A DNA stretch of 64,000 bases from the IMG/VR virus record IMGVR_UViG_2875499822_000002, positions 24,252-88,251 of that record, one strand, 5' to 3'. The notes under the pieces were generated by a model. That model ran no database searches, had not been told where the DNA came from, and saw only the letters and a list, made by a program, of their open reading frames with translations. The translations under genes and the position numbers were made by a program. Positions 43,517-57,287 of the stretch are shown piece by piece (the first letter of the stretch is position 1; the number at the start of each line of letters is the position of its first letter). This DNA comes from a virus. Lineage: Duplodnaviria > Caudoviricetes.

Positions 43517-44674
43517 TTAGTGTCCGCCGATGCGGATTGCACGATCTGGAGCGATTGCCTTAACACCGAACAGTGTTTCGAGCTTCCAATGGGTCGACTC
43601 AGTTTTTGGCTCGTACCAGCTGAGCAGCCTCAGGGTAATACCAGTGTTCGGGTCGGTCAGCGAGCTGATGGTAGTGCTGCCGCTATTAGTCGGAGTTTCC
43701 AACTGGCGGAACACGATCATAAACGCTTCTTTGAGGAACGCTACGTCAACCCTGTGATCACCAATTACGGTAACTGCAGCATCAGCCGGTACTTCGACCT
43801 CCAGTGCGTTAGTAAGCGTGACAACTGCAGAACCGCCGACTGCAACCACGTCGCTAGCAACGGAATACGAACCGTTGACACCGGCAATTGTGATCACATC
43901 GCCGTGCTTGAATGTCGCTCCTGCAGTTGCACCAGACACGGAAAGCATGAACGAGCCTGCTGGAGTAATTGCACTCGTCTTAATGCTGGCATCGGCAGAC
44001 GCAGTACCAGCGCGGTGAGTAACAGCCTGGTTTTCCTCGTAGATGTTAAACCCGAGCCTGCGACCGATGATGCCATCGCGCTCTGCCGTCTGGTCGTTGC
44101 CGCTGGTGAAATCTTTAAGGAAATCAGCAGAGGTTTCGCTGGTGACGGTCAGGCTCCTGACGCCAAATGCATTAAGCAGATCCATGCCCGTTTTGCCTTT
44201 GATCAGGTCAAAGCGAGTACGTTCATTTTTGGAGGTCAGGTCACCGGAGTAATGCGGAACATCCTTATACATATCAACGCACGCTGCGTTAATGGTGTAC
44301 GCCAAGATGTTGATCGCCCCCTGCAATGCCTTGGGGATTGTGCCCTGGATCATCGAGTTGTACTCGCGATCCGACATTTTGAACTCGACGTAAGGCTGGC
44401 GATTGAGTTTGACGTCAACAACTTGCTCTACGATGTCAGTAGCAACTGAGCTTTCGCCGTGCTCCAGTGCCTCTTTGAAAACAACAGGGCATTGAACCTG
44501 GACGGTGTCACCTTTTTTCTTCGATTCGTCCTGGGTGTCGACGGTAATCAAGTTAGGCATGGTCAACTGGCTGACCAGCTCTTTTAGAGCAGTAGTCAAA
44601 ATAACTTCAGACTGAAGCGCCTGGAAGTCGTTACCGTAAGCTCGCAGAGCCACGATCTTGTTTTGTCGATTCAT
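43517..44674 (-). CDS. Major capsid protein, P22 coat-like
   Basis: KKGDTV, G.IGR.LGF.IY, insertion domain GDVITIAGV, and F.K.AF...L.TLFGVK...PD.A motifs. Confidence 0.85.
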   Translation of the reverse strand: MNRQNKIVALRAYGNDFQALQSEVILTTALKELVSQLTMPNLITVDTQDESKKKGDTVQVQCPVVFKEALEHGESSVATDIVEQVVDVKLNRQPYVEFKMSDREYNSMIQGTIPKALQGAINILAYTINAACVDMYKDVPHYSGDLTSKNERTRFDLIKGKTGMDLLNAFGVRSLTVTSETSADFLKDFTSGNDQTAERDGIIGRRLGFNIYEENQAVTHRAGTASADASIKTSAITPAGSFMLSVSGATAGATFKHGDVITIAGVNGSYSVASDVVAVGGSAVVTLTNALEVEVPADAAVTVIGDHRVDVAFLKEAFMIVFRQLETPTNSGSTTISSLTDPNTGITLRLLSWYEPKTESTHWKLETLFGVKAIAPDRAIRIGGH

Positions 44675-44754
44675 CAAAAAAACCTTTCTTATTATTGTTA
44701 TTGGTTTTTGTACAACTATTTACAGAGCCGCACGCAGCGGCTCGAATTACAGCC

Positions 44755-45552
44755 TCAGCCCTGAATTACAATTTCGCCCTTGGCCCGTTTGGCAATCAGG
44801 TCTTTTTCAGTAGCCTTGTCGGAGCTCATGATCATCTGCAGCCATTCTTTTTGACTAACAGTCTTTGCGCCGCCACCTGTACCTTGTTTCCCGCCCGAAC
44901 CAGGCAGATCCTTAGCAAGATATTTTTTGCGAACAAGAAGACCATCCAGCCATTCCTTGCTCTGCAGAGGTTTTCCATCCCGGCCCAACTTAATGTTTCC
45001 GTATTCGTCCCGGAATACCAGTACGCCCTGAGCATCAAGCTCACCCTCGCGCAGTGCGAATTCAGCGATGTCCTCAGCAGCCTCTTTGTGTACAAATTCA
45101 TTGGCCAGAACCAGCTGGTTGATTGTCTGCGAGACGTGCATGCGTTTGATGCGAAGATCAGACTCCTGGAGTTTCTTCTCCAGTTCTTGGATGCTGGTAT
45201 CTTTTTCGCTCAGGATGCCCTTGTAGGACTCAACGGCGGCATTTACTCGTTTGTCAGAAAACGCAGTGATATCCAGCTTGCCGGCTTTGTAAGCTTCTAG
45301 GTCTTCTTGATCCTGAATCTGAGCCTCGAAAGCCTTATACCGAGCATCTTTAGTCTTGATCTCGCCTAGCAACTCATTCTTCTTGCTTACTAGCCCAGCA
45401 ATTTCGGCGCTGTGACGAGCATCTCTTTCTTTTAAGAGAGCTTGTACAGCAGGATGGGAAAGGTCTACTTCGGGTTGAGCCCCTGGCTCGTTTTCGCCTT
45501 CGTCATCTCCGTAAGCATGAAGAACGACAAGCGAATTATGACGCTGCAACAT
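44755..45552 (-). CDS. Scaffolding protein
   Basis: GL..KK.ELL.E.K, charged coiled coil and GSGG..G.GG tail; directly upstream of the capsid. Confidence 0.8.
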   Translation of the reverse strand: MLQRHNSLVVLHAYGDDEGENEPGAQPEVDLSHPAVQALLKERDARHSAEIAGLVSKKNELLGEIKTKDARYKAFEAQIQDQEDLEAYKAGKLDITAFSDKRVNAAVESYKGILSEKDTSIQELEKKLQESDLRIKRMHVSQTINQLVLANEFVHKEAAEDIAEFALREGELDAQGVLVFRDEYGNIKLGRDGKPLQSKEWLDGLLVRKKYLAKDLPGSGGKQGTGGGAKTVSQKEWLQMIMSSDKATEKDLIAKRAKGEIVIQG

Positions 45553-45652
45553 TGATTAAATCCCCCGAGGATTCTTTTATTGTTGTTTTATGTTGTAACG
45601 CCATAATATCATAAAAAATGGCAAGGGGGATTTTTTGCAAAATAACTCTTGA

Positions 45653-55141: not shown

Positions 55142-55192
55142 TGCAGGCCTATTATTATTTTTTTTGGCTAACTTTATTATACAGCTATTTAT

Positions 55193-56719
55193 TTACTGAT
55201 ACCCACTAAGCCCATATTGCACAGAGGACACTGGACGCTTCCAAGTCAATCTGTATGCCAAGGCATCCCAGGCATGATCATCCGGCCCCTTGGCTACTGC
55301 ATCAGGCTGATCTTCATCACGATGCAGGTTCGGCAATGTTTTGAGAGCAAACTTGCAAGACTTGAAGAAGTAAATGTGAGGCTTGCTCGGGTCTTGAGTT
55401 TTTGTAGCGTGAAGCCTGTCGAACATGAGCTGAGCCGATGTCACACGGGAGCCAGGCGATTTGTCTGAGTTGACGAATTCCATTCCTGCGGCTTTGAGCT
55501 CTTTGGCGACGGTTGGGGCATTACCTTGGTCAACCTTGCTGCCGTTGTGAATTTGATTGTCTGCCGGGCCAGGCTGGACTTTCTGATGATTCTTGAACAC
55601 GGTCGTCAGGAGCTTGTCTTCCCTTGCCTTTAGCCTCACACCGATCTGGTTGGCCGGAAGGTAAAGGCCAGCATCTGCTTTGGTTTGCTTGCCTGTCTTA
55701 GGGTCGATCTCAGTGCCGTAGTCTTCACCCACAACGATCAGTGACCCCTTCGGCGGGCAGAATTGCTTGCCATTGATAGTGACCGACTCCCCATTGGCTT
55801 CCGCGTACCACAGGCAGCAGAAAGGTGTGGACTGGCCGAAGTCGAATGACCTATCCACCTTCCAGGCACGGGGGATCTCGAACGGATCAAGAATCAGGTT
55901 CTCAGCTGACCACACCGGGCCGAACATCGCGCTCATGTCGATGGCTTCCCAATCCCCATGTAGCCAGGCAGCCTTGAGAGCCGGATCAGCGATCTGATCG
56001 AGGTAGTTCGTGATGTAGCTTTTGCTGATGTAGGTGTTCTCGAAGATGGTTCCGAAAACAGCGCACCGCTGACGCGAGCCATCCTTGTTGTAGGTGATCT
56101 CACCAGGCCGTTTGCCCTCAAGAAACCGCTCGTATACCCACCATTTGCCAGCACCGAAGGGGTTGGTCGTTGACCTGACTTGCAGGGGCGGCATGTTGGG
56201 TTGTTGTTTCGTAGGGACGAATGCAGTGCGGAGGGTCGACATCATAGCTTCGTAGACATCAGGGTCGCGCCAGGTTGCTAGCTCGTCCCAACCGATGAAT
56301 GCGTACTCGTGCCCGTGGTACTTGTTCTCGTAATCCTCCATATTCTTGATGTGGCCGAAGTACAGCACCTCACCGGTTGCGAACGTCCATGAACATTCAG
56401 ATTTGTTCCACACGGCATCAGGGAAAATTCGGGGGATGATCTTCCTGGAGGTGGCTATGAGATTGCGGAGTGGCTTGTACTCTTTCTTGAAGATCACTCC
56501 TGTCCAGCTGCTGCCCCATCCTTGGCCGACATGGATCAGGTAAGCGATGATCAAAACCTCTGACTTACCGATGCCACGACCGCCATGGAACATCACCTCG
56601 ATCACGAGTGAAAACAATTGGCCAAGCATGATGAACATTTCTTGAGAACCCTTGGTGGGCTTCCAGATGACGTTCCTTGCCGCGTTGGCGATGTGCCTAA
56701 TGTTCCCGGCAGAGCTCAT
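55193..56719 (-). CDS. terL: Terminase large subunit
   Basis: GGRGIGKS, IGWDE, TTNP.G.G and DFG...DHAWDALAY motifs. Confidence 0.93.
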   Translation of the reverse strand: MSSAGNIRHIANAARNVIWKPTKGSQEMFIMLGQLFSLVIEVMFHGGRGIGKSEVLIIAYLIHVGQGWGSSWTGVIFKKEYKPLRNLIATSRKIIPRIFPDAVWNKSECSWTFATGEVLYFGHIKNMEDYENKYHGHEYAFIGWDELATWRDPDVYEAMMSTLRTAFVPTKQQPNMPPLQVRSTTNPFGAGKWWVYERFLEGKRPGEITYNKDGSRQRCAVFGTIFENTYISKSYITNYLDQIADPALKAAWLHGDWEAIDMSAMFGPVWSAENLILDPFEIPRAWKVDRSFDFGQSTPFCCLWYAEANGESVTINGKQFCPPKGSLIVVGEDYGTEIDPKTGKQTKADAGLYLPANQIGVRLKAREDKLLTTVFKNHQKVQPGPADNQIHNGSKVDQGNAPTVAKELKAAGMEFVNSDKSPGSRVTSAQLMFDRLHATKTQDPSKPHIYFFKSCKFALKTLPNLHRDEDQPDAVAKGPDDHAWDALAYRLTWKRPVSSVQYGLSGYQ

Positions 56720-56832
56720 AAAGGCACCTCGCCGGGGTTAATGTCCCGTATACGGATCACAACGCACCTCCCTGTACCGCATGCAGTACAGAGAGGCGAT
56801 TTGCGCACAAGCGCCTGGCCTTGTTTGATCAC
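56716..56832 (-). CDS. 38-aa Cys-containing peptide coupled at both ends
   Basis: GTGA overlap with the peptidase stop and ATGA overlap with the terL start; MIKQGQALVRKSPLCTACGTGRCVVIRIRDINPGEVPL. Confidence 0.5.
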   Translation of the reverse strand: MIKQGQALVRKSPLCTACGTGRCVVIRIRDINPGEVPL

Positions 56833-57287
56833 AAACCATCCCCCATGAGTACCTGATGGCTGGAGATCACGCCGCCCGTGTGGAAGCGCTTGTAGAGGAT
56901 CACTGCATCAACACACTCGTACTCGCTAACGTTTCGAGGGGCGACGACTGAGGGGCTTGGGTCGTGGATGTTTTTGCCGTCAAACCAGACCTGGTGGAGG
57001 ATTCCAGAGGCGGTCAGGATCTGCAGGATTGCCGGGTGTCCGAGACGCTCCAAGATGTCCGGATTTGCCGTGCTCATGTCGATACCGCTGGCTTTGACGA
57101 AGCCGGGGAATGGCGTATACACGGGTGCGTAGCCCAGGCTGAACAGGATCGATGCGGTGTGCTGGATGGTTACGCCGCTGCGTTGTTTGTCGTTGCCGTA
57201 AAGCTCCAGGGCGTGGTCATAGCCGACCGACAAAGCGTTGGCCAGGGTGGCAATACCGCAATCAAATGGAGTGCGTTGCTTGATCAT
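56829..57287 (-). CDS. Stand-alone C39-like cysteine peptidase
   Basis: Q-x4-DCG, H in LHQVWFDG and D in IHDP form a C39-type triad. Confidence 0.75.
   Translation of the reverse strand: MIKQRTPFDCGIATLANALSVGYDHALELYGNDKQRSGVTIQHTASILFSLGYAPVYTPFPGFVKASGIDMSTANPDILERLGHPAILQILTASGILHQVWFDGKNIHDPSPSVVAPRNVSEYECVDAVILYKRFHTGGVISSHQVLMGDGL

Follow-up and report, generated by a model that had tools for sequence, protein, structure and literature searches.

A Pseudomonas prophage in the 88-kb IMG/VR record IMGVR_UViG_2875499822_000002 (Caudoviricetes) encodes a major capsid protein (MCP) of the P22-coat family and a head scaffolding protein which start with the same short N-terminal leader, and between its two terminase genes it carries the gene of a small stand-alone cysteine peptidase that resembles the C39 leader peptidases. 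The stretch of DNA analysed here, referred to as the window, comprises 64,000 nucleotides (positions 24,252 to 88,251) of that record, and coordinates refer to the window unless they are marked as record positions. All head and packaging genes are located on the minus strand in the order terS (terminase small subunit), peptidase, terL (terminase large subunit), portal, about 8 kb of cargo, scaffold, MCP and a gene for a protein of 112 amino acids (aa). We consider it probable that leader and peptidase form a phage-encoded analogue of the system of phage 80alpha and the protease Prp, in which the peptidase would release the leader from both head proteins by cutting after an invariant glycine.

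The MCP (385 aa from its ATG, 43517-44674) begins with the leader MNRQNKIVALRAYG (residues 1-14, 44633-44674; proposed cut after G14), which is followed by ND. The ATG is matched by an equivalent ATG in the relatives, and a TTG is located one codon upstream at 44677. The scaffold (265 aa, 44755-45552) begins with the leader MLQRHNSLVVLHAYG (residues 1-15, 45508-45552; proposed cut after G15), followed by DD and an acidic stretch directly C-terminal of the leader. Both leaders end in an aromatic residue and Gly and share an architecture of a few polar residues, a hydrophobic stretch, an aromatic residue (or His or Cys in relatives) and then the invariant Gly. As claimed in the initial annotation, the two N-termini align without gaps and share R, N, V, L, A, Y, G and D; at an offset of one residue, 8/16 positions are identical. 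When the 16 residues after the Met were compared at offsets of -1, 0 and +1 for 8001 pairs from 127 open reading frames (ORFs) of at least 100 aa, the capsid-scaffold pair ranked first (score 8), followed by two overlapping and probably spurious ORFs (score 7). A strict leader motif derived from relatives, [LIVMF][LIVMFSAC][LIVMFSAC][LIVMF]xx[YFH]G[NDE][DENG], has two occurrences in the 20,066 aa of 81 non-overlapping ORFs, namely the N-termini of capsid and scaffold, and no further site appears when all six frames of the 88-kb record are scanned near ORF starts. The DNA encoding the two leaders has only about 8 consecutive bases in common and uses different codons, which places the likeness and the constraint at the level of the peptide. 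In an unanchored comparison of 10-mers near ORF starts the pair reaches about 6/10, a score that 370 of about 18,000 pairs match or beat; this test proved too insensitive and was replaced by the N-terminally anchored one, and since it did not single the pair out, the statistic from a single genome is taken as modest and the weight is placed on the comparative data. A tail-region protein of 789 aa (23150-25519) contains an internal AVVFYG/DD at residue 710 which fits a loose form of the motif, without sign of a cleavage site.

The MCP matches Pfam P22_CoatProtein (PF11651, E 1.5e-12, 47.5 bits with a cut-off of 24) over residues 21-382, and phrog_283 with an E of 1.6e-61. Among capsid homologues from a large protein collection, 33 of 37 carry an N-terminal extension ending in Gly (tagged capsids), and the four most distant (25-33% identity) have no extension and start M-A/G-N-[ST]-[FL]. 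In a joint alignment, precisely the 12 residues that separate Met1 from G14 are missing from these four untagged relatives, and N15 forms an invariant column that aligns with residue 3 of the untagged proteins (M-A-N start). A further 31 untagged capsid relatives in IMG/VR all begin M-[AGPS]-[NGT] without an extension, as does the capsid of Vibrio phage SSP002. A single-sequence capsid query had no match in IMG/VR, and the profiles for the scans were built separately from the tagged and the untagged alignment. Judged by these alignments, the leader is an addition to the capsid which the untagged relatives do not have, and as the untagged capsids begin where it ends, a cut after G14 would restore the same N-terminus.

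The peptidase is a protein of 152 aa (56829-57287, minus strand) which matches no Pfam family and is assigned only to phrog_31365, a family of unknown function (E 2.9e-28). Its start overlaps the terS stop by one base (TGATG), and no ABC transporter is fused to it or encoded next to this stand-alone ORF. The proposed catalytic residues are Q4, C10 (57258-57260), H98 (56994-56996) and D109-P110. All of 21 aligned homologues keep Q4, D9, C10, H98, D109 and P110 unchanged; in an alignment of 63 members that reaches down to 20-30% identity only C10 and H98 are invariant, with Q4, D9, D109 and P110 kept in at least 90%. The AlphaFold (AF2) model has a mean pLDDT of 86.6 and a pTM of 0.79 and is confident over residues 1-135; residues 136-152 are variable and modelled with low confidence. 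In a Foldseek search of the PDB the top 10 are peptidase domains of the C39 family, from PCAT1 and ComA, and LahT150, a double-glycine protease solved together with its leader peptide (6mpz), ranks 13th. These C39 matches have E values from 3.6e-4 to 2.6e-3, a probability of 1.00 and a TMq of 0.54-0.60, and Josephin, AvrRpt2 and other papain-like folds rank behind them. A profile alignment pairs the Gln and Cys of the peptidase with Q11 and C17 of ComA, which we take to be the catalytic oxyanion and nucleophile residues. Among the 63 distant relatives gathered with the family profile, 16 match Pfam Peptidase_C39 (best E 4.8e-9) and 55 match phrog_31365. Because of the predicted fold, the conserved catalytic positions and the Pfam matches of these distant relatives, the 152-aa protein is best described as a diverged stand-alone C39-like peptidase, not a member of the family by the Pfam model itself; the assignment of a stand-alone C39-like Cys-His-Asp peptidase between terS and terL, made in the initial annotation, agrees with fold and conserved residues alike.

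When 1.84 billion cluster representatives are searched with the peptidase profile, 301 clusters match at E <=1e-3, and among the 150 matches listed nearly all representatives are small stand-alone proteins of 56-264 aa. Among proteins of 83-266 aa, 117 homologues of the peptidase (97-189 aa) were identified, almost all of them from Pseudomonas genomes or metagenomes. A LELYG/ND sequence inside the peptidase itself (residues 27-33, 57186-57206) was considered as an autoprocessing site and rejected as a probable coincidence, because a cut there would remove Cys10 and because homologues differ in the residue that follows the Gly.

Relatives were gathered through the peptidase (nine IMG/VR loci), through the capsid (26 IMG/VR loci and three Pseudomonas genomes, the latter being the only loci that a capsid profile search of genome contigs returned) and through two diverged subgroups of the peptidase. 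Their leaders fall into four types: T1, LVV[LF]xA[YF]G; T2, L[VL][SA]L[IV]R[FH]G; T3, ELFVCG; and T4, found in locus L138 with HLLMFG in the capsid and FLPMFG in the scaffold. The types of capsid and scaffold agree in all 30 peptidase-bearing genomes (18 T1/T1, 11 T2/T2 and one T3/T3), and the same holds for the fragment L040 (T3/T3) and for L138 (T4/T4). Within T1, a hand tally of 20 phages (18 from the 30-genome set plus G009 and G012) shows that capsid and scaffold even have the same choice of Tyr or Phe ahead of the Gly in 19 cases, X078 being the exception. This agreement is kept in spite of scaffolds that are 33-42% identical to that of the window, bar one close relative at 82%; the scaffold of L138 is 30% identical. 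The three Pseudomonas genomes G029, G030 and G031 carry T1, T2 and T3 leaders, respectively. The peptidases that accompany T3 and T4 leaders are 29% and 24% identical to that of the window, and both keep the Q, C, H and D-P residues.

On a maximum-likelihood tree of 30 peptidases the leader type requires two changes, the minimum possible, compared with a mean of 10.0 when types are shuffled (0/200 shuffles as low as two), so that by sequence the leader type follows the lineage of the peptidase. The close relative G001 has a scaffold 82%, a capsid 38% and a peptidase 86% identical to those of the window, and in X076-X078 the capsid lineage of G001 is paired with a peptidase of another clade, which indicates that modules reassort within T1. 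No mismatch between T1 and T2 is found in the relatives collected.

The initial annotation had proposed co-occurrence of leader and peptidase across homologues as a check, and the two do occur together. In IMG/VR, 22/26 records with a tagged capsid contain the peptidase (5/5 among those at least 90% complete), as do all three Pseudomonas genomes with a tagged capsid, compared with 0/32 records with untagged capsids (seven of them at least 90% complete), which were searched with the same profile that matched in 3/3 positive genomes. From the 37 loci that the scan with the untagged profile returned, L111, L113 and L114 were left out of the untagged search as tagged T2 loci that were already counted, and L112, L119 and L120 as contigs of 2-6.5 kb with partial matches; the record of L005, which was not searched for a capsid, and L030, which is without a capsid start, fall outside the capsid comparison. 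Where present, the peptidase gene keeps its place: the order terS-peptidase-terL is found in 9/9 loci, in 7/7 loci of the diverged peptidase subgroup and also in L084, L134 and L138, and by coordinates the one-base overlap with terS recurs in six of those nine. The four tagged records without a peptidase are G012, whose contig ends within terL, G019 and G026, which are fragments without terL, and G009. The last of these (L067/L068) is a related provirus that retains replication genes, scaffold, tagged capsid and tail genes, and may be either the remnant of a prophage or an element that needs a helper to be packaged. It was rejected as a counter-example, since terS, terL and portal are absent too and nothing head-like is in their place.

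No other candidate for a prohead protease emerges from the module. Members of S78 (PF04586) and S77 (PF03420) are not matched anywhere in the 88-kb record, and members of S49/ClpP (PF01343, PF00574) are not matched within the window, where the earlier statement that no HK97-type or ClpP-type prohead protease is visible is thus correct. The only ClpP/S49-type match of the record (record 16900-17343) belongs to a neighbouring prophage and is not part of the window. Portal and scaffold are separated by about 8 kb of variable cargo (45653-53790) at the usual place of a prohead protease gene, and a Pfam scan of 10 of its approximately 16 ORFs of at least 85 aa returns only MvaT_DBD, PIN_12 and a weak RNase_T, and no protease. 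The head-module proteins of the window contain no match to Prp (PF04327), and Prp is likewise absent from 3/3 Pseudomonas host genomes in a search whose controls were positive in Bacillus subtilis, Thermotoga maritima and Lactococcus lactis.

The overlap of its start with the stop of terS suggests that the peptidase is expressed together with the terminase, and the proposed time of its synthesis is late in infection. It would then bind the hydrophobic leaders of the two head proteins and cut after the invariant Gly, between G14 and N15 of the capsid and between G15 and D16 of the scaffold, and the mature capsid would begin at the same place as the untagged relatives. The Gly would be positioned at P1, as in the substrates of C39 enzymes, and the preceding aromatic or hydrophobic residue would occupy the S2 pocket as P2, a hydrophobic P2 being usual for papain-like enzymes. 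The initial annotation had placed the cut near AY-G. The bond after the invariant Gly is likelier, because the untagged capsids begin at the residue aligned with N15 and because of the P1 preference of C39 enzymes; a cut one residue earlier (Y/G) is possible. The leader might serve the co-assembly of scaffold and coat, the timing of maturation, or an assembly line private to one phage. That leader and peptidase belong together is indicated by their co-occurrence, by the matching types of the two leaders and by the way in which these track the peptidase lineage; cleavage, its site and the identity of the enzyme are inferred.

Several points weigh against this proposal. Window peptidase and its 21 close homologues do not match PF03412 (Peptidase_C39) even at an E of 10, and as only distant relatives do so, the homology to C39 is indirect. 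Sequence-profile searches of the PDB are marginal, with ComA (E 0.013) ranking behind a designed repeat protein. The terminal aromatic-Gly of the leaders differs from the Gly-Gly in which classical C39 substrates end. A tblastn search with the peptidase against 50,697 phage records gives no match at an E of 1e-3, so that no cultured phage has a close relative of it, and the best capsid matches in the same records are at most 28% identical and untagged, which leaves the tagged capsid equally without a cultured relative. Distant members of phrog_31365 in other phages are located away from head genes, and no shared leader was seen in the five such loci that were read or in the 15 that were scanned (L122-L136) with the insensitive 10-mer test, whose negative is weak evidence; ORF maps were read for six of the scanned loci, and L134, one of those scanned, is the T3-type terS-peptidase-terL locus mentioned above. 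The family as a whole is thus not tied to a role in head formation. G009 keeps its tagged capsid and scaffold without the peptidase, but terS, terL and portal are absent from it as well. All tagged phages belong to one clade of syntenic prophages (the three named host genomes are all Pseudomonas), and because the phages are related and the genes linked, the correlation of presence and absence may reflect a single origin; linked genes share their history, and the tree test for the same reason demonstrates clustering and does not prove co-evolution. Finally, in PMC5744158 the scaffold leader of 80alpha is described as required for assembly and the cleavage of capsid or scaffold as dispensable for viability. 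A switch that licenses procapsid assembly, as suggested in the initial annotation, is for this reason unsupported.

The same observation lends itself to another explanation, in which the shared N-terminus is a permanent assembly or docking motif of coat, scaffold and perhaps portal that is never removed, and in which the C39-like protein acts elsewhere, on a host protein, another phage protein or the terminase. Cleavage here being inferred, this explanation draws on 80alpha, in which the scaffold leader itself is needed for assembly and its cleavage is dispensable (PMC5744158), on the occurrence of distant family members in non-head contexts of other phages, and on that of small C39-like proteins of uncharacterised role in several cultured phages (BFVD). 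A permanent motif leaves unexplained, however, why the leader type tracks the peptidase lineage through four types, why the invariant Gly is located exactly where the untagged relatives begin and why the peptidase is absent from 32/32 records with untagged capsids, and the invariant catalytic residues suggest that an active enzyme is maintained. On balance this explanation appears unlikely. Removal of the leader by the dedicated phage peptidase is preferred. An enzyme whose catalytic residues are kept invariant through four diverged lineages argues that cleavage is selected for in this group.

Far less probable is the removal of the leaders by a host protease, with the phage peptidase unconnected to them. 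The precedent of 80alpha and Prp speaks for it, but Prp is absent from all three Pseudomonas genomes that contain these prophages, and the presence in Pseudomonas of at least three leader types, each with its own peptidase lineage, would not be explained by a single host enzyme. That the leaders resemble each other by chance or as a functionless relic, for instance of an old duplication of the 5' end of a gene, can practically be discounted, for although eight identities in 16 positions of one pair are modest and the unanchored 10-mer score is frequently equalled, the pair ranks first of 8001 when anchored at the N-terminus, the likeness is kept in 30/30 phages with diverged scaffolds, and four leader types change in step in both proteins.

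Proteolytic head maturation is a textbook step in the assembly of tailed phages. To our knowledge the phage-encoded enzymes that carry it out are serine proteases, and 80alpha is the one case in which capsid and scaffold share a leader, the enzyme being borrowed from the host. The removal of leaders from head proteins is already known, and what would be new is the recruitment of a C39-type enzyme family to that role, which on the present evidence we think fairly likely. In the literature searched, a head protease of the C39 type is not described for any phage; a paper on a Pantoea phage only lists a 'C39 family peptidase' among the ORFs.

The analogy to 80alpha that the initial annotation drew is apt, as the 80alpha capsid protein (CP) and scaffold (SP) have a common leader which is removed by the host cysteine protease Prp (MEROPS C108; PMC9405229, PMC5744158). 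In both systems the two head proteins share a leader of about 13-15 residues with a hydrophobic end next to the cut, and the enzyme that takes it off in 80alpha, and would do so here, is a small cysteine protease. Unlike Prp, which is encoded by the host and has another fold, the candidate protease is encoded by the phage and has a papain/C39 fold. The leader does not mimic ribosomal protein L27, the cellular substrate of Prp, it ends in aromatic-Gly compared with Phe-Phe/Ala in 80alpha, and the coat is of the P22 family. With the C39 domains (PCAT1, ComA and LahT150; PF03412), which are its best structural matches, the peptidase shares the order Gln-Cys-His-Asp-Pro and probably the chemistry. 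C39 leader peptidases remove short N-terminal leaders and cut after Gly. Unlike the C39 domains of exporters, the peptidase is a stand-alone, cytoplasmic protein of 152 aa and its putative substrates are structural proteins of the virion; unlike the C39 substrates, which end in Gly-Gly or Gly-Ala/Ser, the leaders have Tyr, Phe, His or Cys at P2 and only the last Gly is invariant.

Like HK97 gp4 (S78), T4 gp21 (S77) and lambda C (ClpP/S49), the peptidase is a phage-encoded enzyme that would trim both capsid and scaffold. Classical prohead proteases are serine enzymes of the assemblin or ClpP fold, are encoded between portal and capsid and are often packaged, whereas the present candidate is a cysteine peptidase encoded in the terminase operon, and the interval between portal and scaffold is filled with cargo. 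The module is reminiscent of P22 in its PF11651 coat and in having a scaffold gene of its own immediately 5' of the coat gene. Unlike in P22, where no proteolysis accompanies head maturation, a leader has been added to both coat and scaffold in this clade.

If the proposal is correct, a family known for processing bacteriocin leaders would provide a new class of enzyme for head maturation, P22-type coats would be shown to allow a leader that is later taken off, and a function would be found for part of phrog_31365. The tag of 14 residues and the enzyme of 152 aa would constitute a simple testable pair with four natural specificities that can be swapped. Start sites of capsids and mature termini could be better annotated in many Pseudomonas prophages. 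A wider and quite tentative possibility, which we would not expect to hold in full, is that stand-alone C39-like peptidases and co-diversifying leaders on coat and scaffold represent an unrecognised class of head maturation, in which the private pair of each lineage, with at least four types here, could act as a compatibility code. Related prophages or satellites that reside in one host would thereby be prevented from exploiting or poisoning one another's head assembly.

The assignments of the remaining genes of the module, all on the minus strand, are supported by profile matches. TerS (169 aa, 57287-57796) matches phrog_4102 (E 3e-24), terL (508 aa, 55193-56719) phrog_2 (E 6.5e-29) and the portal (438 aa, 53825-55141) both phrog_145 (E 8.9e-85) and Pfam DUF4055 (E 1.8e-28). 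The scaffold matches phrog_206 (E 9.6e-14), and Pfam Phage_scaffold with an E of 0.0016 that is under the cut-off. In the interval between portal and scaffold, the MvaT_DBD match belongs to the gene of an MvaT-like silencer (52331-52699, E 2.7e-22) and PIN_12 to the gene at 52783-53790; most other ORFs of this cargo are without a family. The content of the island varies between phages, and its length is about 5-8 kb in relatives and about 2.3 kb in L084, with no island in L138.

The neighbouring prophage is unrelated, has a G+C content of about 60% and occupies record positions 1-38510, which correspond to window positions 1-14259 and the DNA upstream. A large terminase (679 aa), a portal (495 aa) and a ClpP-type head protease (record 16357-17514) are encoded by this prophage itself.

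Downstream of the capsid gene, the conserved gene for the 112-aa protein (43112-43450) is present in all relatives seen and is without a family. It is followed by the gene of a 593-aa protein (41326-43107) with repeated units rich in Gly, Pro and Asp and a weak RibLong match, which may be a head decoration or fibre. On the other side of the capsid gene, about 60 nucleotides 5' of the scaffold start (45553-45625) are nearly identical between the window and L010, L011 and L013 (GATATTATGG... AATAAGAATCCTCGGGGGATTT), and the scaffolds of these phages are only about 40% identical. This conserved stretch may be a late promoter or an RNA element, by which scaffold and capsid would be driven separately from the terminase and portal genes.

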